32,000 nt of DNA from Opitutales bacterium. GTDB taxonomy: Bacteria; Verrucomicrobiota; Verrucomicrobiia; Opitutales; PNEW01. A model generated the notes under the pieces. That model saw only the letters and a list, made by a program, of their open reading frames with translations. It was not told where the DNA came from and made no database searches. The stretch lies in assembly GCA_965219535.1 (NCBI GenBank), contig CBDCNV010000002.1:1260001-1292000 (forward strand). The letters run 5' to 3'. This document shows, piece after piece, positions 5,864 through 32,000 of the stretch. The first letter of the stretch is position 1. Every line of letters begins with the position of its first letter. The translations under genes and the position numbers were made by a program.

Positions 5864-5881
5864 AACGTTTTGACTAATGAT

Positions 5882-5917: not shown

Positions 5918-5925
5918 TATCATCA

Positions 5926-7197: not shown

Positions 7198-7358
7198 GGA
7201 AGATGTCGTTCCGCGATTGCGGAACTCGGAACTGGTCTTCCGGCTATTCGGTTTGGAAGATGTCATTCCGCGATTGCGGAACTCGGAACTGGTCTTCCGG
7301 CTATTCGGTTTGGAAGATGTCATTCCGCGATTGCGGAACTCGGAATTGGTAATACGGC
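7189..7358. repeat. 57-bp tandem repeat, ~3 copies
   Basis: Units start at 7198, 7255 and 7312 (ggaagatgtcNttccgcgattgcggaactcggaactggtcttccggctattcggttt). Each unit holds a ttccgc-gatt-gcggaa hairpin. The array overlaps the 3' end of CDS 7301-8149. Confidence 0.95.
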
Positions 7359-11589: not shown

Positions 11590-11620
11590 TTTTGACCTTT
11601 TGACGTTTTGACATTTTAAC
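11590..11620 (+). repeat. TTTTGAC octamer array (x3-4)
   Basis: tttttgaccttttgacgttttgacattttaac. It is antisense relative to both flanking minus-strand genes. Confidence 0.95.
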
Positions 11621-11625: not shown

Positions 11626-13596
11626 TCAAACTGACAGATTGAATCTTGATTCCGTCTCTTCATCGATTCCGCCGCGGACAATGGATTCCCAACAGTGTAT
11701 GGGTAATTCACCAAGTATTGATGGAAGTTCAGCTTGCAAGTCTTTGACCAGTGGCAACGCTTCCCTGTCATTCGGATACAGGTTGGCAAGACGGTTCAAT
11801 GCATCCAATGCGAATCCGACACTGATGATATTATCGTCGTCGCGTATTACATCTTTTAAAGCGATTACCAGGGGATCCAACGCTGGGCCAATGATCTCGC
11901 AACCATGGGAACAGAGAATGACGACGGACCAGAGCACATTCTCACGCACCGCAGAACGGACTGGCTTAAATCGCTCGAGACCAAGGTCTCTAGCACCACC
12001 TTCACATACATCGCAGTCATCGGTTGGGCGAGTGAACTTAATGGAGCGTCCTTGTGCATAATCCATGCATTGCCGATTTTCTTCGCGGGGTAGGCTCTGT
12101 ACGAGTGCGTCCAGGCACGAGGGAATGAGTGAAGTTCCGTTCCCGGTGGCAATCGCCCGCCGACCCAGACAACCCAGTGTACCGGCGGCGACGGAGCGGA
12201 CATAAACGGAGGGATCGGATTGCAGACGCTCCGCGACGGCTTGAAAAGTTTCTTCGTTAAGAGGACTCGCATCACCGAGACCATAGACACCCGCCTTGCG
12301 AACCCATTTGACAGGTGAGCTCGTCGCTTTGAGGAAGGTCTTCGTTGCGTCAGGCCCAACGGCAATCAAGCCATAGGTAGCGGCTCGACGCACACTCTCT
12401 CGTTCGTTATACAGTGCCTGGCCCAGTAGTCGTACCGCCAGCTCCGTATCGCCAATGGAGGCGAGTTTGTAGGCTGCTCCAATGCGGGCAGGTTCAGCTT
12501 CTTCGTTTTTGGAGTGCATCTGTTCGAAAAGACGGTCAGCTTCTTTTTCGCGTTCTTCAGATGAAATAGACAAAACTTCCGGTCGCGGTGGCGGTGTCCT
12601 ACTCGTTTTCATCCAGTGATTATGGTATCGCCAGACCACAGTGATGTCGTCGCTGGCCTCAGATAAATCGATGCTGGTAAGCGGATCCACACCGGGGCTG
12701 TGCCAATCGACTTCGGTGGGGGACGCATTACTGGAAGAGACGGAATCGGTGGTTCGATATAACCAGAAACGCCACATGAAGCGAGGGTTGTCCTGCCAGG
12801 TTCGCCAGTCATCGCGGCGGTGGTTACCTCGGTGAAATGTGTTGTGGGAATAGAGAATAACGCTGCCGGCTCGAAGGGGTGCGGCTTCGAAGGGCTGCAC
12901 AAGCGGCCAACCGGTGTTCTTTACGGCGTCTCGCATCCGAATATCGTGGGTTGTTCGACGGTGGATGATGTCTTCAATCTCGTATACGGAATCAGGACCG
13001 CTAACGTTTACGCTCTCCATGCCTAAGATCTGGTAGTTGAAATCTAAATGGTCGGCACCTGCAAAATTGTCATGATTTTCTTCATGATTAGAGGCCCAGT
13101 AGTGTGAGTAGGGGATGGTCGCGGTCGGTCCCATGTCTTCGCGAACCGGTTGCGGATAGTAAAGCATCTCGATTTGCACGGCCTGGTGGTGGCGCTGTTT
13201 CCTGCCGTTGTAGGGGCTGTTGTCATCTTTGTGCCAATGCTGATCTTTCTTCCCGCTGACGAAGGATGCATTGTGCGTGAACGGTACGATCGCCCAGTTT
13301 TCACCGATGAGCTGATTGCACGCGCTGATGAGCCCGGGTGCTTTCAGAACTTCAAGCACGTCCGGAACGCTTGCCGGGGAAACACGCGAAACCGTGGGGT
13401 GGGTTGCTATGGCAGAAACCTGTTCGTCGTATGCTTTTTTTTCTTTCGCATATACCCGATTGTGAACTTCGGTGGGGATACCGAGGCTTTCCGGAGCCAG
13501 CACGACAATCCCTCGGCTTACAAAGTCCTGAACCAGTCGATCCATCGTACTGTAGGGTATGGAGAAAGTGGAAATTTCTTTGTAGTTTGTGCTCAA
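11626..13596 (-). CDS. PhyH-like 2-oxoglutarate oxygenase domain fused to C-terminal HEAT (PBS-lyase type) repeats
   Basis: 656 aa. The N-terminal half has HWHKDD (H-x-D) and NTFHRGNH. The C-terminal ~300 aa has repeated VRRAATYGL / VRKAGVYGLG / VRSVAAGTLG HEAT-like units. The start is TTG 13596 (AGGGG upstream) or ATG 13545. Confidence 0.7.
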   Translation of the reverse strand: MSTNYKEISTFSIPYSTMDRLVQDFVSRGIVVLAPESLGIPTEVHNRVYAKEKKAYDEQVSAIATHPTVSRVSPASVPDVLEVLKAPGLISACNQLIGENWAIVPFTHNASFVSGKKDQHWHKDDNSPYNGRKQRHHQAVQIEMLYYPQPVREDMGPTATIPYSHYWASNHEENHDNFAGADHLDFNYQILGMESVNVSGPDSVYEIEDIIHRRTTHDIRMRDAVKNTGWPLVQPFEAAPLRAGSVILYSHNTFHRGNHRRDDWRTWQDNPRFMWRFWLYRTTDSVSSSNASPTEVDWHSPGVDPLTSIDLSEASDDITVVWRYHNHWMKTSRTPPPRPEVLSISSEEREKEADRLFEQMHSKNEEAEPARIGAAYKLASIGDTELAVRLLGQALYNERESVRRAATYGLIAVGPDATKTFLKATSSPVKWVRKAGVYGLGDASPLNEETFQAVAERLQSDPSVYVRSVAAGTLGCLGRRAIATGNGTSLIPSCLDALVQSLPREENRQCMDYAQGRSIKFTRPTDDCDVCEGGARDLGLERFKPVRSAVRENVLWSVVILCSHGCEIIGPALDPLVIALKDVIRDDDNIISVGFALDALNRLANLYPNDREALPLVKDLQAELPSILGELPIHCWESIVRGGIDEETESRFNLSV

Positions 13597-16492: not shown

Positions 16493-16601
16493 CCGGTCAT
16501 TTTCAGAGCTGTGCACAATAATGATTCCCGTAAGTTAGCTAAACTTAAGATTAGTTTACCCAGCAAGTCTTTTAACGAATGTCAGTTTTTCCCACAATAA
16601 A

Positions 16602-16829
16602 GGCAACACGCTAATATGTGTATACGCGATAATGCGTGTATGCGGTCATGCGGAGCATCTACTGGAGGGACAAGTGGTGCCTGTCGGCCATAGCCCAACG
16701 GGCGTCGGATGATCGTGTCTGTGAATATTCAACAAGAGTATTAAGTGTTAGGTGGAGCGGGCTGTCCCTAGCACGCTTCTTAATTAATCAATAATTATTA
16801 CAAAAGCGGTAGGGACACCGCGTTCCACC
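16602..16829 (+). repeat. composite direct repeat, left copy (ATGCG array + GGAGGGAC hairpin + GGTGGA hairpin)
   Basis: 16602-16727 matches 17571-17696 with 4 mismatches in 126 bp. 16728-16829 is a more diverged homologue of 17697-17797. It is followed by the terminus-like tcgcgatgacaaagg (16831-16845). Confidence 0.95.
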
Positions 16830-16989
16830 TTCGCGATGACAAAGGAAAAAGATTTTTGACCTTCTACCATTCTCATCGTACACACGCATGTTTGAGTATA
16901 CACATATTACTATCCTTTCAGCAGAACGACCTAATTCAGCCCCTGGCTAAGCGGTTGACTAGCTGCTGCGTGTCCTCCCCAATGACTGG

Positions 16990-17547
16990 TTAGAGTAAAT
17001 GGAATGATTCTTCTATCTTGTCACCTTTGAGGAATATTTCCTCAACGTCCTCCGGTATATTCGCGCGGCGAACTACTACAGGCCACAGCTCCAATGGAGG
17101 TTTGGTGGTCAGTATTGTGTCTAGCCGTACTATTTCGAGATCATTGCATATGTACGTTCCCATGTCGCACTGAGTGCCTCCGCAAGCTCGACGATAGTGA
17201 CACTCTCTGAACGAGCAAGTACGACCGAGATACTCCCCTTGCTCATTGCACAGGAATATGTCAGCTCCAGAGCTTTTACTTTGCGCACTACCCTTGAGTC
17301 TCCGGCCGAGCTTGGCCAGTGAAGCGATGTTGGCGATGGAAGTCACAGTCACCAACAGATCAGCATCTTTGGGCTTCCACTTTTTGGTGAGCAACGAACC
17401 GATCATCGCAATCCGGACAATCCCCTGCATTTGGCTTGCGTCGCAGACAAATTTGCGGACTCCCTTTAGTAGAAACGAACGAAGCGGTTCCTGGGAGGAC
17501 GTCTCCATACAGCCTAGCATTAGATTAGCCAACAAGCTTTTTAGCAA
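16990..17547 (-). CDS. orphan Pol-beta-type nucleotidyltransferase-like protein with Cys-rich C-terminal half
   Basis: 185-aa ORF. MIGSLLTKKWKPKDADLLV resembles the G-S...D-x-D minimal nucleotidyltransferase motif, followed by C-x5-C-x5-C-x4-C-x7-C. The start is uncertain (TTG 17547, ATG 17520 or ATG 17508). The ORF is bracketed by composite direct repeats. Confidence 0.45.
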   Translation of the reverse strand: MLKSLLANLMLGCMETSSQEPLRSFLLKGVRKFVCDASQMQGIVRIAMIGSLLTKKWKPKDADLLVTVTSIANIASLAKLGRRLKGSAQSKSSGADIFLCNEQGEYLGRTCSFRECHYRRACGGTQCDMGTYICNDLEIVRLDTILTTKPPLELWPVVVRRANIPEDVEEIFLKGDKIEESFHLL

Positions 17548-17570
17548 GTCTCAGTTATTACAGCGAGAAT

Positions 17571-17797
17571 GGCAACTCGCTAATATGCGTATACGCGATA
17601 ATGCGTGTATGCGGTCATGCGGAGCATCTAATGGAGGGACAAGTGGTGCCTGTCGGCCATAGCCCAACGGGCGTCGGATGATCGCGTCTGTGAATACGCA
17701 GTAGCGGATTTTTATTTTAGGTGGGGTGGGCTGTCTCAGCACGCTTAATAATTATTCAAATATTACTACAAACGCGCTAGAGACAGCACGTTCCACC
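17571..17797 (+). repeat. composite direct repeat, right copy
   Basis: See the left copy; the offset is 969 bp. Weaker similarity extends upstream to agcaagtct (17543 versus 16562), overlapping the 5' end of ORF 16990-17547. Confidence 0.95.
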
Positions 17798-17855
17798 ATT
17801 GCTTATGTAATTATTTTCGTTTCTTACATCATGCATCGTGTATCAATCCGGCTTT
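17788..17855. repeat. ~68-bp 3'-flank module, copy 2
   Basis: cacgttccaccattgcttatgtaattattttcgtttcttacatcatgcatcgtgtatcaatccggcttt, just 3' of CDS 17880-19601. Confidence 0.85.
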
Positions 17856-17879: not shown

Positions 17880-19601
17880 CTAGCATTCCCCAAGATAAAA
17901 CGGTTTCGCTGGACGCCCGCCTTCGGGAAGCCCAATGGGTAGATGAACATTCAGGACGAAGGGACGACTTTCCTGCTCAACCAATTTAAGACCGTGGTCC
18001 ATAGCTTCTTCGATCTTGGATTCTTCCTGAACATGCATCCCTTCTACGCCGTAGCCCTCGGCAATTTTTATTGGGTCTATTTTATCTAATACCACACCCG
18101 CGTAATCTCCAGACTTATGCATCGTGCCGCCGGCTCCTAAGACGGAAAAGTTTTTTGCGACGATACCATAGCACTCGTTATTGGGGATCACATAGAGAAC
18201 GGGAATCTTGTGATGAGCGGCTGTCCAGAAACCGGTGTCCGCGTAGTAAACGGAACCGTCACCGACGAGACCGACAACCGGTTTTGACGAGGCGGCGAGT
18301 TTCACGCCGATAGCGGCTCCCATACCGTAGCCCTCCGACCCACCGGCAGGGGGAATATAGACATTGTTCCCGGCCGGTTGCATTCCGCCCAGGCAACTCA
18401 AGAGAGCGAAATGTTCCATCGAAATTATCCCGCCACCCAAATCTTCCAGGGATTTATCGAGCGTGTCAGCCAACACCCAGGGACGAACGCGGGCTGTTTG
18501 AGGTTCGACACTTTTCATGGCTTTAATACGTTTCTTTTGCTGAGCTGCCGTCTGCTCGAGTAATAGTTCCCGTCGATCCTTAAATCGGTTGGCATCAGCC
18601 GTCGATGACTCCAGGCTTTCAGTTAATCGTTCGAGCGTTCGATGCTCATCGGCTATCACTGCCTGATCAAGTCCTTCAATATTTTTTAAATTATCAACAT
18701 CTGTACCGATAGCGACGACGCTATTAGCGTTTGAAAATTGATTGTAAGCTAAGCGGTGACGAACGCCGATGGCGATGACGTAGTCCGGATCCAATGCGTT
18801 AAAATCATCCTGCCAGTAGAGCTTTTGATTTACTAAAATTCCGCGATTCCAAAGTTCTTCTCCGTATTTAATGGGGATGCCATAACGTTCCGCGAAAGCG
18901 ATGAGTTCGGCTTCCGCGCCGCTCTTCCAGATTCCATCGCCAAAAAATAAGAGCGGACGCTCAGCTTCAGTAAGGGCACGAGCAATTGTTTCTACATCGC
19001 TATCCGCGGGAAATCCGGCTCGAAGGTCGGGAAGTCCGCTCTCTACAATGTCTGTGTCAAAAGTGTCAGTGGTGAGCGTGTTTTCGTAAATAGCCAAATG
19101 TACTGCACCCACCGGGGGTGTTTTTGCCACGAGAAGCGCGCGATAAATCGCGTGCGCCAGTCCATCAGGTTTAAGCACCGTCCAACTCGCTTTGACATAA
19201 GGGGCCGAAATATGAGTGGGTCCTACACTCGGATTTATATGATGGCCCCAGCCAACTCTGTCCGTCCCACTACCTGTATCGGCTGCATAGGTAATAACAA
19301 CGACGGGTAATTTGGCATTATGAATGTTGAGCATTTGCCCCAGGGTCTGGCCTAACCCACAATCGAGATGGGCGAGCATCACCGCGGGATCGTTTTTTAC
19401 CTGAGAGTATCCCCCGGCCATGCCGGTCACCACACCCTCGTGGAGTCCCAGTATGCTATGAATGTCAGGGTGATCGTGTAAGGCATCGAAGAAACGCGCC
19501 TCGTGCGAACCCGTGTTATTAAAAATATACTTAACTCCCAGTGCCGAAAGCTGCTCAACCAAAACCTGGGACGGATTACCCTTGAACGCTCTTTTCTTCA
19601 T
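17880..19601 (-). CDS. thiamine-diphosphate-dependent enzyme (acetolactate synthase / sulfoacetaldehyde acetyltransferase-like)
   Basis: 573 aa. The N-terminal Pyr domain (HEGVVTGMAGGY) and the ThDP-binding motif GDGSVYY...IPNNECYG are both present. Confidence 0.85.
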   Translation of the reverse strand: MKKRAFKGNPSQVLVEQLSALGVKYIFNNTGSHEARFFDALHDHPDIHSILGLHEGVVTGMAGGYSQVKNDPAVMLAHLDCGLGQTLGQMLNIHNAKLPVVVITYAADTGSGTDRVGWGHHINPSVGPTHISAPYVKASWTVLKPDGLAHAIYRALLVAKTPPVGAVHLAIYENTLTTDTFDTDIVESGLPDLRAGFPADSDVETIARALTEAERPLLFFGDGIWKSGAEAELIAFAERYGIPIKYGEELWNRGILVNQKLYWQDDFNALDPDYVIAIGVRHRLAYNQFSNANSVVAIGTDVDNLKNIEGLDQAVIADEHRTLERLTESLESSTADANRFKDRRELLLEQTAAQQKKRIKAMKSVEPQTARVRPWVLADTLDKSLEDLGGGIISMEHFALLSCLGGMQPAGNNVYIPPAGGSEGYGMGAAIGVKLAASSKPVVGLVGDGSVYYADTGFWTAAHHKIPVLYVIPNNECYGIVAKNFSVLGAGGTMHKSGDYAGVVLDKIDPIKIAEGYGVEGMHVQEESKIEEAMDHGLKLVEQESRPFVLNVHLPIGLPEGGRPAKPFYLGEC

Positions 19602-19644
19602 AGAGAGAAATTTCTATTTCATTCACTGTTAAGTAAAGGTAAAA

Positions 19645-19702
19645 GCATATGCGTATACGCATATGCGATAATGCGGTAATGTGTGTATGCGATGATGCGG
19701 TA
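19645..19702. repeat. ATGCG-type array beginning with a 22-bp perfect palindrome
   Basis: gcatatgcgtatacgcatatgc (19645-19666) is a perfect palindrome, followed by gataatgcggtaatgtgtgtatgcgatgatgcggtac. Confidence 0.95.
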
Positions 19703-19821
19703 CAGTTATGATTTTCTAACATCATTGATCCTGAACCCTGTTATTAGTTTATCATTCTACCTGATATCCGACGTTTGATGTGCGAGATGTTGAACCTACT
19801 TCGTATATCGTATATCTTTCT

Positions 19822-19852
19822 CCCCGAACCCTGAACCCCGAACCCCGAACCC
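19822..19852. repeat. GAACC(C/T) heptamer array
   Basis: ccccgaaccctgaaccccgaaccccgaaccc. It touches the stop codon of CDS 19852-20307. A shorter cctgaaccctg lies at 19729-19740. Confidence 0.95.
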
Positions 19853-20307
19853 TATTTCTTCCCCCTCCTATGCCCGCGGCCGGTTCTCACATAACCGATC
19901 TGTTTGAGTCCCTTACCGTAGATGCGAAAAGCCTTCCCAAATCCGTATACCAGGGTGCCTTCACTCGGTTTCAAAAGAAATAGATCAAAGTCTACTAAGT
20001 TTTTCAGCATCCCGACCTTCTTTTTGAATTTTTTTTCCAAAATCGCAAATGCAGTGTTCCATTTCACACTCTCCCGTTTAATGACACTAACCTTAACCTC
20101 AAGGGTCAGTCGTTTGCGGGCAAAGAGCGTCGCCGCGGTCGATTCATCTTCGATGATCATTAGACTCGCTTTACCCGTAGCCTTGAGGTTGGCGGAGTGG
20201 CGAGCCAGCGCGCTCACATAAATATAGAAATTACATTTCTCATCGATGGCCGCCGGGGCATAACTGGCGTTGGGCTCACCGTATTCATCCACGGTGCTCA
20301 AAATCAC
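19852..20307 (-). CDS. pyridoxamine-5'-phosphate-oxidase-like / HugZ-like FMN-binding split-barrel protein
   Basis: The 151-aa ORF starts at GTG 20307. The frame stays open 28 codons further upstream (to 20391) and encodes a plausible N-terminal helix with no ATG, GTG or TTG. The stop codon abuts the GAACC array. Confidence 0.6.
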   Translation of the reverse strand: MILSTVDEYGEPNASYAPAAIDEKCNFYIYVSALARHSANLKATGKASLMIIEDESTAATLFARKRLTLEVKVSVIKRESVKWNTAFAILEKKFKKKVGMLKNLVDFDLFLLKPSEGTLVYGFGKAFRIYGKGLKQIGYVRTGRGHRRGKK

Positions 20308-20382
20308 TGTTTTGAAATGATTTAGCAGACTATCTCGCTCTCTCGCTGCCTCCTTAAATTCTTCTTCTGTTTTGATCGAATA

Positions 20383-20415
20383 GTCAAAAGGTCAAAAAGT
20401 CAAAAGGTCAAAAGG
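20383..20415 (-). repeat. GTCAAAAG octamer array (x4)
   Basis: gtcaaaaggtcaaaaagtcaaaaggtcaaaagg. It reads TTTTGAC in the sense of the PNPOx-like gene and overlaps the open upstream frame of that gene. Confidence 0.95.
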
Positions 20416-20416
20416 A

Positions 20417-20463
20417 AATGCGTAAATGCGATTATGCGAATAAGCGAAGATGCGGTAATGCGT
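20417..20463. repeat. ATGCGNNN octamer array
   Basis: aatgcgtaaatgcgattatgcgaataagcgaagatgcggtaatgcgt. Confidence 0.9.
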
Positions 20464-20486
20464 ACCGAGGGTGAACCCCGACATCC
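20462..20486 (+). repeat. 25-bp direct repeat, copy 1
   Basis: gtaccgagggtgaaccccgacatcc, 23/25 identical to 20767-20791. Confidence 0.9.
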
Positions 20487-20546
20487 TAATATATGGTATT
20501 GAAGAAATGGCTAGTAATCATATGTATCATACATCGTGATTATTTT

Positions 20547-20741
20547 CTTGTCATTGCGAAGGAGGCGAAGCCGACTGCGGCTACCGAGCGCCGCGACATC
20601 TTCCATTTCCAGGCGACTGACGATACGCTGTCCTATGTTCTCCTGGAATGGAAGATGTCGGACTACGTCCTCGGTAGCCACGACTGACAAGCAACCTTCC
20701 CCCGTCGCACGAGGCTATGGAGGACAGGCGCGATGACAAAG
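20547..20741. repeat. GTCATTGCG / CGCGATGACAAAG-bounded palindromic element (~195 bp)
   Basis: The termini cttgtcattgcg and cgcgatgacaaag are inverted. The inner arms ctaccgagcgccgcgacatcttccatttccagg (20581-20612) and cctggaatggaagatgtcggactacgtcctcggtag (20642-20677) are also inverted. Confidence 0.9.
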
Positions 20742-20766
20742 GGAATCTATCGATAATCTGCTATAT

Positions 20767-20791
20767 GTACCGAGGGCGAAGCCCGACATCC
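20767..20791 (+). repeat. 25-bp direct repeat, copy 2
   Basis: gtaccgagggcgaagcccgacatcc. Confidence 0.9.
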
Positions 20792-20846
20792 CTCAATCGA
20801 AAATCTTGCATCCAGGATTCTGCAAATATTATAGACGGTAATTAGT

Positions 20847-22115
20847 ATGATAAATAATAACGAAACAAAAGCTGATGTCGTGATTGTCGGTGCCGGTGTA
20901 ATTGGAATTTGCACGGCTTATTTCCTTTCTCAGTCGGATCGAGATATTATCGTCGTTGATAAAGATGAGGTCTGCTCGGGCTGTTCCTACGGAAACGCTG
21001 GCTTGATCGTTCCCAGCCACTGCGTCCCGCTGGCTGAGCCGGGAGTAATAAAAAAAGGAATGAAATGGATGCTGAATCCCGAGAGCCCTTTTTATATTAA
21101 ACTGCGTCTCGATAGGGACTTGCTTGACTGGCTATGGCGATTCCGAAGCGCTTGCAATGAAACTCATGTAAAGCGTTCGATGCCGGTAATCAGTGATCTC
21201 ACATTCGAGAGCTTGCAACTTTACAACGAGATAATCGGAAACGATGGGATAGACTTCGGTTTTGAGCAACGGGGTTCGCTCTACGTGTGCAATACTGAAA
21301 AAGCAATGGATGAGCTTGAGGAGAATATGGGTCAATTGCAGTCGGTGGGGATCGAATCAGAGCTCCTCGATAAAGTTCAGACCCAGGAGAAAGTGGGTGA
21401 TCTAAAAGTTAATACGGTCGGCAGCGTATACTACCCACAAGATGCACATCTCCAGCCGGCCCGGTTCGTCAGGGAGTTGGCGAAAAAGGTTATCGAATCC
21501 GGGGTGAAGATCCAATCTAAGACTGAAGTCCTGGGATTCGAAAGAACAGGCAATCGGCTTACGAAAGTCTGGACCACGCGAGGTGATATCGAGGCGAATG
21601 AGGTGGTCATTGCGAGTGGAGCCTGGTCACCTGCAATCGCGCGGCAGCTTGGGCTGCGCCTGAAAATTCAAGCGGGGAAGGGCTACAGCATTACCCTCGA
21701 GCGTCCTGAAGTTTCAGCGGACATCCCATTAATGCTTGTCGAGATGAAGGTTGGCGTGACCCCGATGGGAGATACTATTCGTTTCGCGGGAACACTCGAG
21801 ATGGCGGGACTGAACTTTGCAATCAACGAGCGAAGGGTTCAGGGTATCCTCAAGTCTGTGCCGCAATATTTGCCCGATCTCGATCCCAATCTCTGTCGGT
21901 TGATCGAGGTCTGGCGCGGGCTGCGCCCCTGCACTCCGGACGGATTACCGTATTTAGGACGCCCCAAAAATTTTGAGAATCTGACCGTAGCTGCCGGGCA
22001 CGCGATGATCGGAGTATCTCTCGGACCCGTAACCGGTAGAATCGCATCTAATATCGTGCTCCGTGAAGACCCCGGATTCGATTTAACCCCATTGAGATTA
22101 AGCCGATTTAACTGA
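20847..22115 (+). CDS. FAD-dependent oxidoreductase, D-amino-acid dehydrogenase (DadA)-like
   Basis: 422 aa. The N-terminal DVVIVGAGVIGICTAYFL dinucleotide fold and the overall DAO-family layout are present. Confidence 0.85.
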   Translation: MINNNETKADVVIVGAGVIGICTAYFLSQSDRDIIVVDKDEVCSGCSYGNAGLIVPSHCVPLAEPGVIKKGMKWMLNPESPFYIKLRLDRDLLDWLWRFRSACNETHVKRSMPVISDLTFESLQLYNEIIGNDGIDFGFEQRGSLYVCNTEKAMDELEENMGQLQSVGIESELLDKVQTQEKVGDLKVNTVGSVYYPQDAHLQPARFVRELAKKVIESGVKIQSKTEVLGFERTGNRLTKVWTTRGDIEANEVVIASGAWSPAIARQLGLRLKIQAGKGYSITLERPEVSADIPLMLVEMKVGVTPMGDTIRFAGTLEMAGLNFAINERRVQGILKSVPQYLPDLDPNLCRLIEVWRGLRPCTPDGLPYLGRPKNFENLTVAAGHAMIGVSLGPVTGRIASNIVLREDPGFDLTPLRLSRFN

Positions 22116-22121
22116 TCGGCT
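22101..22121 (+). terminator. stop-codon-spanning hairpin (weak terminator candidate)
   Basis: agccgat-ttaactg-atcggct has a 7-bp stem, and its loop contains the TGA of CDS 20847-22115. No T-run follows; a GTCAAAAG array follows instead. Confidence 0.3.
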
Positions 22122-22123
22122 TA

Positions 22124-22155
22124 GTCAAAAGGTCAAAAAGTCAAAAGGTCAAAAG
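22124..22155 (-). repeat. GTCAAAAG octamer array (x4)
   Basis: gtcaaaaggtcaaaaagtcaaaaggtcaaaag, immediately 3' of the plus-strand DadA-like gene. Confidence 0.95.
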
Positions 22156-22192
22156 GGGAGGAGCGCTGACGCGATAATACGAAGTATCTTCT

Positions 22193-22344
22193 GGAGGGAC
22201 GCGTGGAGCCTGTCGGCCATAGCCTAACGGGCGTCGGGTGATCGCGTCCGTGAACATGCCTTGTGTAAAGTTCTCCATTTACGGCTACGACGGAGCGTGA
22301 CCTTACATACCTTCGGACTATGGCCGATAGACGCGATGACAAAG
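22193..22344. repeat. composite palindromic element (GGAGGGAC hairpin + CCTGTCGGCCATAGCC arm ... GGACTATGGCCGATAG arm + CGCGATGACAAAG terminus)
   Basis: 22193-22255 is homologous to 16664-16726 and 17633-17695. cctgtcggccatagcc (22209-22224) is inverted relative to ggactatggccgatag (22315-22330). The element is followed by ccgaattccgcaatcggaaatcggaaattg (22354-22383). Confidence 0.9.
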
Positions 22345-22386
22345 AGTATCAATCCGAATTCCGCAATCGGAAATCGGAAATTGTCA

Positions 22387-23346
22387 TCATTTCCCATACA
22401 TCGCTCCTGCGATTGCGAGTTCAGCTGAATAAAGAGAAGTATCACTCGCAATATATAAGGTTGTGAAATTGGGGCCGCCAAAACAGCAGTTTGCCGTGCT
22501 CTGTTCGGGCAGCAGTATTTTTCCGATCAATTCGCCTCGTGGTGTATAACAGTGAACCCCATCTTCGGCGCTTGTCCAAATGTTGCCATTAACATCACAG
22601 CGGAAACCATCGGATGCACCCGGCCTCACCAATAAAAATTCACGCTCGTTGCTGAGCGTTTTTCCGTCGTCGGCGACATCAAATGCAAGGACGTTTCTCG
22701 GTTCTCCCGTGTCGGCCACGTAAAGGATGGATTCATCGGGTGAAAAGGCGAGGCCGTTAGGCCTGTCCATCGTGTCAATGGCGACTGACAGAGAGGAAGT
22801 TTCGGGGTCATAACGGAATACATAATTGGCTCCATAATCCGAATCGCGTTTAGTCCCCTCACGATTTGAGAGAATACCGTAAGGCGGATCAGTAAACCAT
22901 ATCGAACCATCAGATTTAACCACGAGATCATTAGGCGAATTAAATCTTTTTCCTTCAAAGTTATCGACTAATGTCGTCACGCTTCCGTCGTGTTCTGTTC
23001 TCGTGATGCGATTCGTCTGGTGCTCTGCAGTTACCATACGCCCTTCATGATCGGTCGTATTGCCGTTGGAAAAGTTTGATCGCTCCCGATGGACAGCGGT
23101 TTCGCCCGTAGCCGGATCATAACTGATCATGCGATTATTCGGGACGTCAGACATGACGACCAGTTTATGACGGGGAAGATAGACGGCACCCTCTGCCCAC
23201 TCAGCACCGCGCCAATGATGAACAATTTTTGGGTTTTCCGGTAAGAGTTTGTCAAAGCGAGGATCGATCGTCTCGAAACCCTCTCGTAGCTCGTCTCCGG
23301 ATTTATCGTTTCTATGCGCGGGAAATATTTTTGATTCAGCTGGCAT
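22387..23346 (-). CDS. SMP-30/gluconolactonase/LRE-like beta-propeller hydrolase
   Basis: About 319 aa. AEGAVYLPRHKLVVMSDVPNNRMISYDPATGE and repeated propeller blades are present. The track starts at TTG 23352; ATG 23346 is preferred. The ATG lies 9 nt from a TTTTGAC array with no Shine-Dalgarno. Confidence 0.8.
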   Translation of the reverse strand: MPAESKIFPAHRNDKSGDELREGFETIDPRFDKLLPENPKIVHHWRGAEWAEGAVYLPRHKLVVMSDVPNNRMISYDPATGETAVHRERSNFSNGNTTDHEGRMVTAEHQTNRITRTEHDGSVTTLVDNFEGKRFNSPNDLVVKSDGSIWFTDPPYGILSNREGTKRDSDYGANYVFRYDPETSSLSVAIDTMDRPNGLAFSPDESILYVADTGEPRNVLAFDVADDGKTLSNEREFLLVRPGASDGFRCDVNGNIWTSAEDGVHCYTPRGELIGKILLPEQSTANCCFGGPNFTTLYIASDTSLYSAELAIAGAMYGK

Positions 23347-23355
23347 GGGCAACTA

Positions 23356-23388
23356 GTCAAAAAGTCAAAAGGTCAAAAAGTCAAAAGG
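23356..23388 (-). repeat. GTCAAAAG octamer array (x4)
   Basis: gtcaaaaagtcaaaaggtcaaaaagtcaaaagg. It reads TTTTGAC in the sense of the gluconolactonase-like gene and lies 9 nt from its ATG. Confidence 0.95.
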
Positions 23389-23392
23389 TTTT

Positions 23393-23427
23393 GGGTTCAG
23401 AGGTTCACGGTTCAAGGTTCAGCGGTT
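23393..23427. repeat. GGTTC (reverse GAACC) heptamer array
   Basis: gggttcagaggttcacggttcaaggttcagcggtt. Confidence 0.95.
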
Positions 23428-23499
23428 GAGTGTATGATATCGGTATACTTTAGAATTAATTGTACCGGGGCTATGCTTGTCTTCCTGAATGTACTTAAT

Positions 23500-23529
23500 G
23501 GAGGGACGCGTTCCGTCGCGTCCGTGTAT
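23500..23529 (+). repeat. short form of the GGAGGGAC hairpin
   Basis: ggagggacgcg-ttccgt-cgcgtccgtgtat has the same stem as 22193-22255 but a 6-nt loop in place of the 39-nt insert. Confidence 0.9.
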
Positions 23530-23571
23530 TTCCTGGTATAATCTTACACATTCACGACCATTATCAGTCGT

Positions 23572-23609
23572 CGCCCGGTGGGCTATGACCGACAGGCACT
23601 GCGTGGCCC
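23572..23609 (-). repeat. reverse-oriented CCTGTCGG(C/T)CATAGCC module
   Basis: cgcccggtgggctatgaccgacaggcactgcgtggccc is the reverse complement of the module found inside the long GGAGGGAC hairpins. Confidence 0.85.
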
Positions 23610-23651
23610 TAAGAATTACTTGTATCTTGCACCCTGCATCTCGCGTCCTCT

Positions 23652-23763
23652 ATTGTCATTGCGAAGGAGGCGATGCCGACTGCGGCAATCCAGGGGGGCT
23701 GATATTACACTTCCGACATTCCCCTGGATCGCCACGGCTGACAGCAGCCTCGCGATGACAAAT
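23652..23763. repeat. GTCATTGCG / CGCGATGACAAA-bounded palindromic element (~112 bp)
   Basis: attgtcattgcgaagg is inverted relative to cctcgcgatgacaaat. The inner ggcaatccagggg is inverted relative to cccctggatcgcc. Confidence 0.9.
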
Positions 23764-23834
23764 TATATCAGACAACATATTAATACATTCGATGTATCTA
23801 GAAATAAGATATAGACATACGAGGAGAAGCGGAA

Positions 23835-24629
23835 ATGGAAGATTATAAGGACAAAGTGGTCATCGTCACAGGTGCCTGTGGTGGCATAGGAGAAGTGATC
23901 GCTGAAAAGATGGCCGGAGCCAGCGCCGCGCTGGGACTCTGTGATATCAATCGCGATAAGCTTGTTTCAGTCGCGGATAAATTTCAGAGCGCGGGTGCGC
24001 GTGTTCACCACTCAGTCACCGATGTTTCCAAGGAAGATGAGGTTCATGAATTTTGCGACGCGGTCGTTTATACACTCGGGAAAATCGATTGTCTGATAAA
24101 TACGGTCGGCATTGTAGATTGCCAGGGTGACATTGAAGAACTGTCTCTTTCGCTATTGGATAAAACCCTGGGTATCAATCTCACTTCAGCTTTCCTCATG
24201 GCAAAGTATTCACTTCCACATATCAAGCAGCAGGGTGGGGGTGCGATCCTCAACATATCATCGGCTTCAGGTCTCGCCAACCAGGCAAAGGCGATGGTTT
24301 ATTCGGTTTCGAAAGCCGCCCTCCTATCGCTCACACGAAGCGAAGCCATCGATCTTGCTCCCTATAAAATTCGCGCCAACTCCATCTCCCCGGGCTCGGT
24401 GTATACGCCATTGTTGGATGATGCACTTCGTGATCAGTCCAAAATCTACAACCGCACGGAGGAGGAGCAGTTGAAGGTATGGGAATCGCAATATCCAACA
24501 CAGCGTTTTTCGACGCCACAGGAAATCGCCGAGCTCGCCCTATTTTTGTGCAGCGATCGAGCGTCTAATATTACCGGCTCCAATTTTGTTATCGATGGTG
24601 GACTAACATCCCTGCTCCCCGAAAGGTGA
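23835..24629 (+). CDS. short-chain dehydrogenase/reductase (SDR)
   Basis: 264 aa with TGACGGIGE, NISS and YSVSKAAL (YxxxK). GAGGAG lies 8 nt upstream of the ATG. Confidence 0.9.
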   Translation: MEDYKDKVVIVTGACGGIGEVIAEKMAGASAALGLCDINRDKLVSVADKFQSAGARVHHSVTDVSKEDEVHEFCDAVVYTLGKIDCLINTVGIVDCQGDIEELSLSLLDKTLGINLTSAFLMAKYSLPHIKQQGGGAILNISSASGLANQAKAMVYSVSKAALLSLTRSEAIDLAPYKIRANSISPGSVYTPLLDDALRDQSKIYNRTEEEQLKVWESQYPTQRFSTPQEIAELALFLCSDRASNITGSNFVIDGGLTSLLPER

Positions 24630-24913: not shown

Positions 24914-24948
24914 CTTCGACTTTCGACTTTCGACCTTTGACCTTCGAC
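24914..24948 (+). repeat. TTCGAC/TTTGAC array (x5)
   Basis: cttcgactttcgactttcgacctttgaccttcgac, 13 nt upstream of the RidA ATG. Confidence 0.95.
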
Positions 24949-24961
24949 TATCTATTCCCCT

Positions 24962-25342
24962 ATGAAACGAAAAAATATTTCTTCCCAAAGTCCCTTTGAG
25001 CCCGTATTCGGCTATTCACGCGCGGTTCGCGTTGGCAATCAGATTCACTTAGCGGGAACAACAGCGCAACCACCTGAGGATCAGGGTGACGCCTACGAAC
25101 AGGCAGCAGGGGCGTTACAGATTATTCGAAAAGGGCTCGTTGAAGCCGGTGCCGATTTTAAAGATGTCGTACGTACCGTCGTCTATATAACAGATATGAA
25201 ACACATGGAGGGAGTTACCCGTGCGCATAGCGAAGTCTTCCGTGAAATATTGCCCGCTTCAACCTTGGTCGCTATATCAGCCTTAGCTAAGCCCCATCTC
25301 GTCGTCGAGATCGAGGCTTATGCGATATTAGAGAATGAATGA
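24962..25342 (+). CDS. RidA / YjgF / UK114 family enamine-imine deaminase
   Basis: 126 aa. The size and the segments AVRVGNQIHLAGT and VVEIEAYA are typical of the family. The ATG lies 13 nt after a TTCGAC/TTTGAC array with no Shine-Dalgarno. Confidence 0.8.
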   Translation: MKRKNISSQSPFEPVFGYSRAVRVGNQIHLAGTTAQPPEDQGDAYEQAAGALQIIRKGLVEAGADFKDVVRTVVYITDMKHMEGVTRAHSEVFREILPASTLVAISALAKPHLVVEIEAYAILENE

Positions 25343-25349: not shown

Positions 25350-25425
25350 GGTGGAACGCGCTGTCCCCTAGCGCGTTTCAAAATGTCATAAGGGAAGAAG
25401 CGTGCTAGGGACAGCCCGCTCCACC
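25350..25425 (-). repeat. GGTGGA...TCCACC long hairpin, inverted orientation relative to 16751-16829
   Basis: The right arm cgtgctagggacagcccgctccacc is the exact reverse complement of 16751-16775. The left arm is ggtggaacgcgctgtcccctagcgcg. The element lies between convergent genes and is followed by a reverse TTAGG array (25431-25460). Confidence 0.95.
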
Positions 25426-25482
25426 GCTTACCCTAACACTTAACACTTAAAACTTAACACTGATCGATAAATCACCAATCAC

Positions 25483-27702
25483 TTAAAACGTTACTTCTTC
25501 AAAGTTAAGGGTGATCGTTTCTCCAACCTCGTTTTCGAAGGTAGCAGCAACGCTCTGTGTCGGTTGGGGCGTGTTGTCGGATTTGAAGTTGTTCTGCGAA
25601 ATCAAGGTCTCAATTCCGGATGTCGTCGAATCACTCTCCGCGACGACGACTGCGGCCCCGTTCGTCTGCAACAAATCTCCTCCCGTGATCCTCACCCCGG
25701 GGTTGCCGGCTGGCACAGTGAAAGAGCCTTCTCCAAACAAAAGGTACGGAACTGCATCCCCACTGGCATCGATGTCGCCTAAGGTTAAGCGAACCGCGAT
25801 CGGTACCCCGCGCGCGTCGACACCGGTCTTGCCGGTGCTTCCACTGAAGACGGTGTTCGATAACTGCACTCCTCCCATTCCTGTGGAATTAACGACTTCT
25901 ACGAGGGCCACGTCCGCTTGTGCGTCATAGACCTGTCCCTCGGGGAAGAGGGCCTGGTTAAACGCGTTGATCCTGCCCACGGTGAAGATACTGAAGAAGG
26001 TATTGGCATCCGCGCCGTCGATGACGACGCTCGGCTTGCCCGTCACGTACTCAACGGCCTGGTTGTAGCGTGGTGGGATGGCCGGGGGCAGGAAGGTAGC
26101 TGGGTCCAGGGTTACGGTAAAGGTACCATTACCTGAAAACTCTACCTGCACAATATCCTCGTTTTCGTCCATGAAGGAGACGCGTGTGATCTGTCCCGGT
26201 TTGGCCTGGAGTTGGACGGACTCTCCGGTAAGTAAAATCTGGTCGAAGACGTTACCGTTGGCATGCTGAATGTTTTCCCCGGCGATATCGCCCGAGCCGT
26301 CAAGCACGAGAGGGATAGCCGCGGCTGCGATCGTAATAACCGCAGTATCGCTGTCCGCGGTTCCTCCAGCGTTAGTAATCTGTACCCAAAAGCTTGTGCT
26401 CGCGGTGAGCGCGCCCGTGTCTAACGTGCCGCTGGTAGCGCCGGCGACGGGACTGGCGGTGTCGCCGCTGTTGCCGGTAAACCACTGGTAAGTGAGATCG
26501 TCACCACTGGCGGTAACGGACAAGCTGGCTGAAGCGCCCGAAGCGACCTCCTGGCTCGCGGGCTGGGTAGTGATGGACGGGGCATCCGCGGGTGGGGGTC
26601 CTTCGGAGCCCGTGCCCGGTGCTCCGATGGGCGTAAACCCAAAATCGTCAACTGCAGTACGACTGAAAAGAGCGTTTATATCCGGGTCATCTTTCATCAC
26701 AAGTCTGCTAATGCCGCCCGGGGCTCCCAATTCATCCGCATTAATCGTTATGAAACTAGGTTTGAATTCAGGGGTAATATCCCCCTCTAAATTCCTTAAG
26801 GTAACAAGCAAGTTATCGTTCGTATCATAGACTTCGATTGAGCCGTCAGGATCGGAGGTACTTGATGTCACCACTGCGGCTCCAAAAAGATCAATTTCAT
26901 AAGCTGGCGTTTCAAAAGTGATGGTCGCTTCTTCTCCATTAAATATTGCATAAGAATGAGGGAACGAGCGTACTTGTTCGAAGGCACCTGAGACAAATAC
27001 GATAGACCCCCCTTCAAAAGTAGCCGTATTAGGCGACGTCCCAATGACTAAGGGCTCAGATAATCCATCCCCTACGCCAAATTCACTAAAAGTGCTGTAA
27101 ACCGTGTTGTTCGAGGGAAATTCCGTCAGGGTGAACCCCAAGTCGTCGAGGACGAGTTTTCCGGTTACATTAAAAATCTTCACTTCTATAATGCCGCTGA
27201 TGAAATTAAAATCATCTTCATCCTGGAAAAATCCGCTGTCGGCGACAAAGCTGTATAAGGGGGGATTTGCGCCGGGACTGATATTTGAAGGCAGCCCATC
27301 CACAACACCATCGTCACCTATTACCGTTATCGCCATACGACCTGGGCCCGCTAAATTTGATTCATTGATTATTCCCCTGAACTCCATCCTGCCAGCGCCC
27401 GTTGTTTCTCCAGCATAAAATTCGATAAATTGAATACCTCTTTCCGAGATGATCTTTCCCTCCTGTCCGGGCCCGAGGGTTATCGCTTTTGTTCCTGAAT
27501 GTAAAAGCGCGGGATCCTCTAATGTCTCAATCGTGAAGCCGACCAGCTTAATCCGATTGGGCTCTTCACCGATAAAAAATTCACCTTCACCGCTGATGTC
27601 TTCAAAATCTGTGAATACCTCCAGGTCTTGAGGCAGGGCGATAAGAAGAATCGGGTTTAAAATTGAGAGTAAAACGAGCGTAAGTGCATTTTTAAAAAAC
27701 AT
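25483..27702 (-). CDS. large secreted/surface protein with Ig-like domain
   Basis: 739 aa. It has an N-terminal signal (MFFKNALTLVLLSILNPILLIALP). A central ITTQPASQEV...LTYQWF...TADSDTAVITI segment is Ig (I-set)-like. The composition is Gly/Thr/Ser-rich. The internal plus-strand ORFs are shadows. Confidence 0.7.
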   Translation of the reverse strand: MFFKNALTLVLLSILNPILLIALPQDLEVFTDFEDISGEGEFFIGEEPNRIKLVGFTIETLEDPALLHSGTKAITLGPGQEGKIISERGIQFIEFYAGETTGAGRMEFRGIINESNLAGPGRMAITVIGDDGVVDGLPSNISPGANPPLYSFVADSGFFQDEDDFNFISGIIEVKIFNVTGKLVLDDLGFTLTEFPSNNTVYSTFSEFGVGDGLSEPLVIGTSPNTATFEGGSIVFVSGAFEQVRSFPHSYAIFNGEEATITFETPAYEIDLFGAAVVTSSTSDPDGSIEVYDTNDNLLVTLRNLEGDITPEFKPSFITINADELGAPGGISRLVMKDDPDINALFSRTAVDDFGFTPIGAPGTGSEGPPPADAPSITTQPASQEVASGASASLSVTASGDDLTYQWFTGNSGDTASPVAGATSGTLDTGALTASTSFWVQITNAGGTADSDTAVITIAAAAIPLVLDGSGDIAGENIQHANGNVFDQILLTGESVQLQAKPGQITRVSFMDENEDIVQVEFSGNGTFTVTLDPATFLPPAIPPRYNQAVEYVTGKPSVVIDGADANTFFSIFTVGRINAFNQALFPEGQVYDAQADVALVEVVNSTGMGGVQLSNTVFSGSTGKTGVDARGVPIAVRLTLGDIDASGDAVPYLLFGEGSFTVPAGNPGVRITGGDLLQTNGAAVVVAESDSTTSGIETLISQNNFKSDNTPQPTQSVAATFENEVGETITLNFEEVTF

Positions 27703-27714
27703 GGCTATCTTTGA

Positions 27715-27750
27715 TATGTATTGATGGGGGGAGATGTATTGATGGGGGGA
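27715..27750. repeat. 18-bp tandem repeat x2 just upstream of the secreted-protein gene
   Basis: (t/g)atgtattgatgggggga occurs twice. On the coding strand it reads tccccccatcaatacat x2 and ends 12 nt before ATG 27702. Confidence 0.9.
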
Positions 27751-28003
27751 ACAATCTCATTAGAGAAGGTGACTAGGTCAAATCTAAAACCTAATATTCA
27801 ATTATATGTAAAAAACCTAATTTACGTAACATATGTGATTTACTAGTAAAGAATGAGCTTACACCTTGATCTAAGTTTACTTGGTGGCTCTCTATTACTA
27901 TTAAATAACTTGACGCTATTATAGTCCCGCTCGAGTATTTTAAAACTGTCGCACCTGCCATACCAATGGTTGTAAACCTGTGTATCTTTCAACGAATTGA
28001 GCA

Positions 28004-31604: not shown

Positions 31605-31645
31605 GTATACGCGATTAAGCGTGAACGCGGGTATGCGGAATTAAG
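31605..31645. repeat. degenerate ATGCG-type array
   Basis: gtatacgcgattaagcgtgaacgcgggtatgcggaattaag, upstream of the symporter-fusion gene. Confidence 0.8.
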
Positions 31646-31682
31646 AGTAGAATGTCAAAAGACATTTCTATGACATTGTGCA

Positions 31683-31710
31683 GGTGAAACGCGGTCGACT
31701 CCGCCTCCAC
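31683..31710. repeat. miniature GGTGRA...CCAC hairpin
   Basis: ggtgaaacgcgg-tcgact-ccgcctccac keeps the outer arms of the GGTGGA hairpin family without the interior. Confidence 0.6.
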
Positions 31711-31711
31711 T

Positions 31712-31956
31712 CTTGTCATTGCGAGGGAGGTATTCAACCGATCGTGGCAATCCAGGCGAATAATCATTGTACTTACGAATACTTAGTCTACACTAAGATC
31801 TTTCCAATGAGGTTCATCTCCTCAATCAAGTTAATTGTTTAATTGAGAGTAAGCCCTAACATCCAGAGACCTGCATCACTCAACTGACATCCTCCTGGAA
31901 TGTAAGATGTCGCTACGCTCGGTAGCCGCGTCGCGTTGCTCCTCGCAATGACAAAC
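31712..31956. repeat. GTCATTGCGAGG / CCTCGCAATGAC-bounded palindromic element (~245 bp)
   Basis: The termini are a perfect 12-bp inverted pair (31715-31726 and 31941-31952). The element contains ggcaatccagg and cctggaatgtaagatgtcgctacgctcggtagcc, as element 20547-20741 does. Confidence 0.9.
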
Positions 31957-31977
31957 GAAGGGAATCGCTGGTGCGCG

Positions 31978-32000
31978 TTTTAAGTGTTAGGTGTTAAGCA
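31978..32000. repeat. TTAAGTG/TTAGGTG array, cut by the window edge
   Basis: ttttaagtgttaggtgttaagca. Confidence 0.85.

Follow-up and report, generated by a model that had tools for sequence, protein, structure and literature searches.

Short tandem arrays recur in several intergenic spacers of a 32,000-nt stretch of the Opitutales contig CBDCNV010000002.1 (here called the window), and the question raised by this locus is why different arrays should keep one order. The initial annotation described that order in three spacers between divergently transcribed genes (5722-5925, 20308-20846, and 23347-23834). Along the plus strand it listed the start of the minus-strand gene, an array of GTCAAAAN units, a second array of short period (ATGCG or GGTTC), GCATC-type heptamers, a larger element, and the start of the plus-strand gene, and it attributed the order to either propagation of composite units or functional constraint. 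The analysis reported here addresses what sets the order, how far it extends beyond the three spacers, and which kind of element could produce it.

Coordinates are those of the window; negative values and values above 32,000 refer to the source contig beyond it, which was extended by look-ups to 50.2 kb (-8603 to 41595). A pattern scan supplied 15 8-kb blocks of the Opitutales metagenome-assembled genome (MAG) OY829953.1, two from another Opitutales MAG (CBDANS01), and approximately 95 from other phyla. The three Opitutales genomes compared are the source, OY829953.1, and CBDANS01, supplemented by two Joint Genome Institute (JGI) metagenome contigs. Within the GTDB species set, no genome is closer to the source than OY829953.1; their Ig_7 genes are 85% identical in nucleotides and 90% in amino acids. 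Arrays were recovered with Tandem Repeats Finder (TRF) and a repeat finder and are named A (GTCAAAAN), B (NNNATGCG, period 8, with units of the form NNNA[T]GCG), C (TGCATC heptamers), D (GTGTTAG), E (GGTTCAN), and F (TTCGACY). H1 denotes the GGAGGGAC hairpin and H2 a second hairpin (e.g., 16751-16831), and a prime mark (A', B') denotes an inverted copy of an array.

Order and polarity of the arrays

The A, ATGCG, and GGTTC arrays, the heptamers, the palindromes, and the 36-bp repeat named by the initial annotation were all recovered where it had placed them. The heptamers are clear TGCATC-type arrays in the first and third spacers (5831-5863 and 23621-23645), while those of the second spacer (20521-20538) amount to two degenerate units. 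Within the window, GTCAAAAG occurs 16 times, against 1.2 expected.

The order of the modules was evaluated by shuffling module order and strand within 45 multi-module spacers of the three Opitutales genomes. The A array was terminal and inward-pointing in 31/32 cases, compared to a permutation mean of 12.0 (p ≤ 5e-5), and a co-oriented B array lay on the inner side of A in nine cases and an oppositely oriented one in none (permutation mean, 2.1; p ≤ 5e-5). Among spacers outside the window, the corresponding counts were 26/26 terminal and inward-pointing A arrays (p ≤ 5e-5) and seven co-oriented B arrays (p ≤ 5e-4). The proposal of a nonrandom order and polarity is thus supported by permutation, and it was replicated on the rest of the source contig, in the two other Opitutales genomes, and in the two JGI contigs. 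It is barely credible that three repeat-rich spacers merely happen to share their module order. The discovery set was small and allowed substitutions (ATGCG or GGTTC; palindrome or 36-bp repeat), and the preference of A arrays for the minus-gene side of divergent spacers, at 4 to 1, is not significant, but the permutation and replication results contradict coincidence.

A second test did not depend on the array family: for every TRF array whose unit was 6 to 9 nt long, the direction of the G-rich strand was compared with the position of the nearest coding sequence (CDS). The G-rich strand pointed away from the CDS for 25/31 arrays of the source contig (p = 9e-4), 50/56 of OY829953.1 (p = 1e-9), and 12/12 of CBDANS01 (p = 5e-4), or 87/99 for the three genomes pooled. 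The polarity of the arrays is therefore relative to the nearest CDS edge, start or stop, on either gene strand. Several unrelated arrays in three genomes follow one geometric rule, in which the outer module lies at the CDS, the G-rich strand is directed outward from the CDS, and the modules are nested in order.

The A arrays illustrate the rule most directly. They occupy the outer edge of the spacer, where usually 0 to 15 nt separate them from a start or stop codon, and their reading direction leads away from the gene concerned. When 43 A arrays were oriented, drawn from the window and from 17 Opitutales loci, the outer, TA-flanked side was within 45 nt of the boundary of a long open reading frame (ORF) in 35/43 (18 starts and 17 stops), and the inner side was within 45 nt of a CDS in 3/43. 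On the 50-kb source contig, TTTTGAC reads toward the nearest CDS in 13/13 A or F arrays; 10 of these adjoin starts and 3 adjoin stops, with gaps mostly of 7 to 15 nt. The start and stop contexts in OY829953.1 are about equal (∼15 to 15), so the apparent preference for starts on the source contig is not robust.

Two restrictions contained in the initial annotation did not survive. It had tied the plus-strand order to divergent genes, but mirror copies adjoin plus-strand starts at 1674-1704, -4268 to -4237, and ∼39016-39040. It had also treated the order as a property of divergent spacers, but an A array followed by a B array is present in tandem spacers (35980-36048 and -4436 to -4222) and in a convergent one (22116-22386). 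Across the 50 kb there are eight divergent spacers, four with the plus-strand order, one with the mirrored order, and three without A arrays. Divergent spacer 27703-28003 contains none of the A, B, or C modules; two copies of an 18-bp direct repeat, ATGTATTGATGGGGGGAG, lie at 27716-27750, directly upstream of where the Ig_7 gene 25483-27702 starts.

The composition of the A unit is equally constrained. Across 169 units, the heptamer GTCAAAA is essentially invariant and position 8 varies freely (A, 42%; G, 42%; T, 11%; C, 5%). In 186 kb, runs of two units (n = 10), three units (n = 15), and four units (n = 29) were found, and none of five or more. The four-unit arrays display 16 different patterns of the eighth (wobble) base, and because of this diversity they are not recent copies of one master. 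The core, the wobble position, and the length limit are likewise not the signature of a neutral microsatellite.

Other genes carry different arrays before their starts, including CCTGAAC, AATCCGA, CCTAACA, and CGCAT (-5760 to -5491, upstream of -101 to 1092, and upstream of 29034-31595). Start-proximal arrays are thus a general habit of the source genome that extends beyond GTCAAAAN.

Nested palindromes as the proposed source of the order

We slightly favor, at little better than an even chance, a reading in which the spacers are mosaics of nested, inverted-repeat noncoding elements whose arms are short tandem arrays and which may be selfish or structural. They would resemble the bacterial interspersed mosaic elements (BIMEs) of Escherichia coli and the BOX elements of Streptococcus pneumoniae. 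The outer arm of such an element would be TA-(GTCAAAAN)3-4. Next inward would come (NNNATGCG)n, with CGCAT units or the wobble variant TGCATC as the partner arm, or an alternative inner series of GGAGGAGCGCTGAYGCG, GTGTTAG units, and then the GGTGGAGCGGGCTGTCCC hairpin. The center would be a loop, often bearing a MITE (miniature inverted-repeat transposable element; TTGTCATTGCGA...TCGCRATGACAA) or a small hairpin. Because a palindrome reads alike in both orientations, its arms would point away from both flanking genes, each with its G-rich strand facing away from the adjoining CDS. The three window spacers would be alike because they are the left halves of such palindromes, with the right halves missing or decayed. 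The elements may spread or persist as selfish DNA similar to MITEs or repetitive extragenic palindromic (REP) sequences, MITEs may insert into the centers of older palindromes, and single-sided arrays may be remnants.

The evidence for pairing comes from predicted folds. In the fold of 5745-5880 (z = -3.3), the B array (GAUGCG) pairs with the C array (UGCAUC), with one G·U wobble per unit, and the lone inverted unit at 5868-5876, CGTTTTGAC, is the partner of the A array. Because B and C units pair in this fold, C is the partner arm of B and not an independent module. An exact mirror image of 5750-5876 is present in locus L042 (4225-4367). The most complete example lies outside the window in divergent spacer 37606-38014, which begins in the order of the initial annotation (minus-gene start, four A units, five to six B units, a short C array, and a MITE) and continues in its right half with CGCAT units (B'), a degenerate TTTGAC array (A'), and the plus-gene start. 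Its single strand folds as a nested palindrome (z = -9.4), in which the MITE hairpin is enclosed by B-B' pairing and by partial pairing of A with A'. Inverted A pairs also bracket many spacers of OY829953.1, and these fold with z scores of -6 to -7.5. In the three B/C or B/B' hairpins examined (n = 3), the mismatches are in each case G·T rather than A·C on the strand that is sense for the gene lying downstream of the C or A' side.

The same geometry alters the identity of the larger element that had been listed before the plus-gene start. In two of the three spacers this element is the palindrome described, which is MITE-like, but the 36-bp unit at 5882-5917 is a mirror-oriented edge module belonging to the other gene. 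Its reverse complement is the AGCGCTGAC...GCGCGTGTTAT motif found after A arrays elsewhere, and a second copy (94% match) is present at 3870-3905. Two composites are shared between genomes, type I (A-B-C) by the source and CBDANS01 and type II (A-GGAGGAGCGCTGAYGCG-GTGTTAG-H2) by the source and OY829953.1. Propagation and constraint, the two causes originally proposed, therefore both retain some support, the former from these shared composites and from the ∼83 to 84% identity of 16550-16829 and 17519-17797, and the latter from the invariant heptamer, the free eighth base, and the limit of four units.

The MITE-like palindromes share the ends TTGTCATTGCGA...TCGCRATGACAA. Terminal inverted repeats and a hairpin-like fold were found in 20547-20741 and 23652-23763 and also in 31713-31956. 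The family is small (112 to 245 bp), noncoding, and multicopy, with at least five copies along the 50-kb source contig and two in the OY829953.1 loci. The P motif (GTACCGAGGGYGAAVCCCGACATC), which corresponds to the sub-terminal arm of this family, is also present as solo copies at 20463-20487, 20769-20794, L085 (∼7086), and L112 (7114-7160). The copies at 20463 and 20769 are direct repeats flanking the C array and the MITE. Since the motif is an arm of the MITE, the solo copies are probably MITE-arm remnants.

Intergenic mosaic repeats are already known; what is new here is a CDS-edge-anchored grammar of nested palindromes in Opitutales. BOX elements have the structure boxA-boxB(n)-boxC, and BIMEs combine REP units with defined linker motifs. 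As with these, at the level of architecture, the Opitutales elements are intergenic mosaics of a few short modules in fixed order with long stem-loops. They differ in having no known sequence similarity, in having arms made of 7- to 8-nt tandem arrays rather than single 35- to 60-bp boxes, and in the nesting of MITEs inside them. REPINs are inverted REP doublets mobilized by REP-associated tyrosine transposases (RAYTs). Like REPINs, the Opitutales elements are intergenic, hairpin-forming, inverted pairs of short repeats that look the same in either orientation; unlike REPINs, their A...A' pairs lie 70 to 90 nt apart with unique interiors, and each arm consists of a tandem array instead of one palindromic unit. 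A MITE bearing a minisatellite has been described in Porphyromonas gingivalis (PMC4596501). The palindromes at 20547-20741, 23652-23763, and 31713-31956 resemble bacterial MITEs in being short (110 to 245 bp), noncoding, multicopy, and strongly folded, with terminal inverted repeats. They differ in lacking an identified target-site duplication or parent insertion sequence and in the solo arm fragments (P motif) scattered in other spacers.

Several observations weigh against the mosaic reading. The flanks of seven MITE copies contain no consistent direct repeat that would represent a target-site duplication, and no transposase gene was found in the 50 kb; no genome-wide search for transposases or RAYTs was made. 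The interiors of the A...A' pairs in OY829953.1 (70 to 90 nt) are unrelated by inspection; because these interiors are nonhomologous, the pairs are not a classical MITE family, and their assignment to a single such family was rejected. The arrays likewise gave no sign of a consistent target-site duplication: TA precedes 29/56 arrays, and TA on both sides is a feature of only some pairs. Most arrays of the source genome are single-sided, so that decayed halves are an assumption, and spacer 38894-39050 folds weakly (z = -1.6). Finally, the invariant core of the 169 A units, the 16 eighth-base patterns, and the four-unit limit look more like the products of selection or a defined binding site than like neutral selfish DNA.

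A purely historical explanation, in which large composites were recently duplicated and the spacers resemble each other without any general rule, is quite improbable. Three observations speak for it. The direct repeats 16550-16829 and 17519-17797 (∼83 to 84% identity over ∼217 to 280 nt) flank a DUF6932 gene (16990-17520), a perfect 323-bp tandem duplication is present at 1156-1802, and the A array at 20381-20415 has an identical counterpart at 22122-22156. However, the three divergent spacers are similar only at the level of arrays (60 to 80%) and differ in unit sequence, order and polarity hold across genomes diverged by 10 to 15% and across unrelated array families, and the wobble patterns are diverse. 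If the rule instead reflects palindromes that invade one another, as the mosaic reading supposes, these spacers would be a clean natural example of BIME/BOX-like mosaic building, where bacterial intergenic repeats are usually cataloged one family at a time.

Function at gene boundaries

The unit composition and edge positions of the arrays also permit a functional reading, which we regard as possible without expecting it to prevail. Under this reading, the arrays are cis-elements that mark gene boundaries and provide phased sites for a candidate DNA- or RNA-binding protein, and the A-B-C order is under selection. One form would be a start-proximal leader for translation independent of a Shine-Dalgarno (SD) sequence, as proposed for the TAACTGA repeats of Beggiatoaceae (PMC4679880). 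The nearly 100% invariance of GTCAAAA beside a free eighth position, the limit of four units in 186 kb, and the 16 wobble patterns, which exclude recent copying from a single master, are all consistent with recognition sites. So are the narrow gaps to start codons (mostly 7 to 15 nt, with 10/13 source-contig arrays at starts), the start context of the A-B junction in both JGI contigs, and the similar edge bias of the same octamer array in Planctomycetota (17 to 5). An SD motif was found in 0/8 array-adjacent genes. Against this, SD motifs are rare genome-wide (7/30 genes without arrays), and array-adjacent genes do not differ significantly in this respect (p = 0.31); the proposal that arrays replace SD sites was accordingly rejected. 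The arrays of OY829953.1 adjoin stops as often as starts, and the array at 11590-11612 lies in the opposite sense upstream of a gene with its own SD. The mRNA strand also differs, with CUUUUGAC before starts and GUCAAAAG after stops. A single role at the RNA level is hard to reconcile with start and stop contexts that present different strands.

A more specific version, in which the four-unit arrays are dedicated recognition sites for a putative gene-boundary protein in Opitutales and perhaps more widely in the Planctomycetes-Verrucomicrobia-Chlamydiae (PVC) group, with the nested A-B-C order as a cis-regulatory grammar, is unlikely. Were it correct, the putative protein might organize SD-independent starts, the pairing or processing of mRNA ends, or gene-wise recombination. 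Selection as the source of the rule would imply a boundary-marking system in a poorly studied phylum with little use of SD sequences.

Of the phenomena already described, the closest is that of the TAACTGA direct repeats in marine Beggiatoaceae, Cyanobacteria, and Bacteroidetes. These repeats form sets of two to six tandem copies, are almost all intergenic, and usually stop a few nucleotides short of a start codon without a ribosome-binding site (MacGregor 2015, PMC4679880). The Opitutales arrays resemble them as short, intergenic, often start-proximal tandem sets with a scattered phylogenetic distribution. They differ in that the unit is an octamer with a free eighth base, several families stand in fixed order, stops are adjoined as well as starts, inverted pairs are frequent, and polarity follows the CDS edge, not the direction of transcription. 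The TAACTGA-like placement of two to six copies in one orientation ending just upstream of a start describes 10/13 source-contig arrays, and approximately half of the OY829953.1 arrays are at stops. The TAACTGA motif itself was not matched by the motifs found here (GTCAAAAN, NNNATGCG, TGCATCN, GTGTTAG, GGTTCAN, and TTCGACY).

The TTGAC(A) inside every unit raises the alternative that CTTTTGAC arrays are clusters of sigma-70 -35 boxes driving the adjacent gene. Source-contig arrays do mostly read toward gene starts, and one candidate promoter (TTGACT, 18 nt, AAGAAT) is located at 20387-20358 on the minus strand. Nevertheless, a -10 box and a transcription start site would not fit into the 7 to 15 nt between the arrays and the start codon, no enrichment of promoter-like sites was seen (6 versus 6.0 expected), and half of the OY829953.1 arrays point into the 3' ends of genes. 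Promoter clusters, a very improbable explanation, were rejected on spacing and lack of enrichment.

A-type GTCAAAAN arrays were also observed in MAGs of Phycisphaerae, Planctomycetaceae, Poribacteria, and Bacteroidales (among loci L007 to L115). The A arrays of other phyla often stand beside sibling arrays (GTCGAAAC and GCCGAAAC) and sometimes form tight inverted pairs (L033 and L093). An Alcanivoracaceae MAG (L087) has an A array of dozens of units, compared to the four-unit limit in Opitutales. The edge bias of A arrays in Bacteroidota (9 to 5) is not significant.

Tandem heptamer arrays of heterocystous cyanobacteria are known as short tandemly repeated repetitive (STRR) sequences. Heptamer arrays of these cyanobacteria also figure among the long simple sequence repeats (LSSRs) of Mrazek et al. 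(2007; summarized in PMC4679880). Like STRRs and LSSRs, the Opitutales arrays comprise multiple families of 7- to 8-nt units confined to intergenic DNA, and one of them differs by one unit between two assemblies (TTCGACT). They are unlike them in the four-unit limit, the conserved core with a wobble position, the strict edge position and polarity, and the verrucomicrobial host. Membership in the STRR class was rejected, as was a cyanobacterial origin of the window, whose nearest genome belongs to Opitutales (OY829953.1). Regarding slippage, whole-unit copy variation of the kind expected of a microsatellite was observed for the one TTCGACT unit, and the length distribution of GTCAAAAN arrays does not decay but rises from 10 to 15 to 29 and then stops, with none of five or more units. 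The arrays are not CRISPR arrays, as 7- to 8-nt units abut directly, compared to 25- to 40-nt repeats separated by unique spacers.

Feature inventory, turnover, and genomic setting

Table 1. Array modules, hairpins, and palindromes located in the window
Feature	Coordinates	Strand	Context or measure
A array, 3 units	5750-5773	+	28 nt from start of minus-strand gene 3898-5721; reads away from gene
B array, 5 units	5776-5816	+	Co-oriented with A; 5' arm of hairpin
C array, TGCATC heptamers	5831-5863	+	3' arm; G·U-wobble partner of B array
Single inverted A unit, CGTTTTGAC	5868-5876	-	Closes A...A' stem
36-bp unit, ATAACACGCGC...GTCAGCGCT	5882-5917	+	Mirror-oriented edge module of plus-strand gene 5926-7038
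A array, 4 units	20383-20414	+	75 nt from start of minus-strand gene 19852-20307
B array, 6 units	20416-20462	+	After A array
P motif, GTACCGAGGGTGAACCCCGACATCC	20463-20487	+	Matches sub-terminal arm of MITE; second copy at 20769-20794
Weak C array, 2 degenerate units	20521-20538	+	Directly before MITE
MITE-like palindrome, TTGTCATTGCGAAGGAGG...GCGCGATGACAAAG	20547-20741	.	Fold z = -6.3; 85% identity to L112 over 116 nt
A array, 4 units	22124-22155	+	8 nt past stop of plus-strand gene 20847-22115; convergent spacer
Degenerate B units, H1 long form (GGAGGGAC hairpin), MITE-end motif CGCGATGACAAAG	22157-22344	+	
A array, 4 units	23356-23387	+	9 nt from start of minus-strand gene 22387-23346
E array (GGTTCAN; GGTTCA)	23394-23427	+	In the place held by B elsewhere
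H1 hairpin, short form GGAGGGACGCG..CGCGTCC	23500-23523	+	
C array, TTGTATC TTGCACC CTGCATC	23621-23645	+	Directly before MITE
MITE-like palindrome, short copy of 20547-20741 family	23652-23763	.	Fold z = -6.5
A array, 4 units, mirror orientation	1674-1704	-	15 nt upstream of plus-strand gene 1720-2589
Inverted GTGTTAG arrays forming hairpin, then CGCAT (B') units	2600-2707	.	At stop of 2708-3685; z = -6.4
A array, 3 units	11590-11612	-	49-nt spacer between two minus-strand genes; adjoins stop of 11626-13545
Composite: B, H1, GTGTTAG, H2 (16751-16831), CGCGATGACAAAG	16611-16909	+	Closed by inverted B' arm (16877-16909)
Second composite copy: B, H1, H2, then C array	17580-17847	+	84%; no CGCGATGACAAAG terminus
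F array (TTCGACY, 7-mer sibling of A)	24915-24949	-	12 nt upstream of plus-strand gene 24962-25342
H2 hairpin and CTAACAC array	25350-25461	-	By stop of 25483-27702
B array, MITE (31713-31956), 5' arm of GTGTTAG hairpin	31605-31998	+	B array at start of 29034-31595

The features collected in Table 1 qualify the remaining composites of the initial annotation. At 22124-22185, an A array directly followed by ATGCG had been reported; the four-unit A array is present, but the ATGCG stretch (22157-22185) is degenerate. A recurring series of ATGCG array, hairpins, and terminus had been read at 16611-16845 and 17580-17797. Both composites exist, and the H2 hairpin of the first folds strongly (z = -7.3), but the second lacks the CGCGATGACAAAG terminus. 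Similarity between the two copies extends from the repeat composite to within ∼30 nt of both downstream start codons, which points to duplication of an upstream region or insertion of a gene cassette. The label of a reduced composite was a stretch for 31605-31956, which contains a B array and a MITE and neither the GGAGGGAC nor the GGTGGA hairpin.

Recent change can be read from a 116-kb HiFi metagenome contig, ENA ERZ25067264 ctg829431, which encodes proteins identical to those of the window. Over 32 kb the two sequences differ by one single-nucleotide polymorphism (3463), one TTCGACT unit, and one 323-bp duplication. The F array at 24915-24949 has one TTCGACT unit fewer in the window than in ctg829431. 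The 323-bp segment is single-copy in ctg829431, so that its tandem duplication reflects either structural polymorphism or a difference in assembly. Both copies carry the first ∼80 nt of gene 1720-2589 together with an A array and a MITE-like element, and the A array at 1674-1704 has its duplicate at 1351-1381. Because these differences separate near-identical assemblies, unit slippage and local duplication are ongoing.

In practice, such elements yield spurious ORFs and assembly polymorphisms in MAGs. Two ORFs of 64 and 89 amino acids (20493-20687 and 23489-23758) lie wholly inside MITE palindromes and are almost certainly spurious; one is a called gene in the public assembly.

The gene content of the window is typical for heterotrophs of marine Verrucomicrobiota and other PVC bacteria and includes PhyH dioxygenases, a GH67-like hydrolase, an enolase-superfamily enzyme, an SMP-30 lactonase, Ig_7 proteins, and a Kelch/SSF fusion. 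No tRNA genes and no Rfam 15 matches at gathering score were found in the window, and 19600-24000 gave chance-level Rfam hits only. The window sequence had no match to plasmid DNA, and a literature search on the motifs and on Opitutales repeats returned nothing specific.

A single orthologous gene end was shared with OY829953.1 among the fetched loci (25350-25461 and L113 7069-7165), and synteny breaks beyond it. The H2 hairpin and the CTAACAC array by the stop codon are kept in both genomes. Their two H2 arms have exchanged places, an indication that the palindrome was inverted or that the insertions were independent. Two paralogous Ig_7 genes (25483-27702 and, on the extended contig, 32053-34278) are 4 kb apart with ∼80% nucleotide identity, and a third relative in OY829953.1 (L113) has 85% nucleotide and 90% amino-acid identity. 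Elsewhere in the window, a 57-bp tandem repeat in three copies (7192-7362; 96 to 84% identity) overlaps the 3' end of 7301-8149 and a doubtful ORF (7051-7401). The segment preceding it (7132-7197) consists of an H2 arm and a C array and is 86% identical to 17789-17854.

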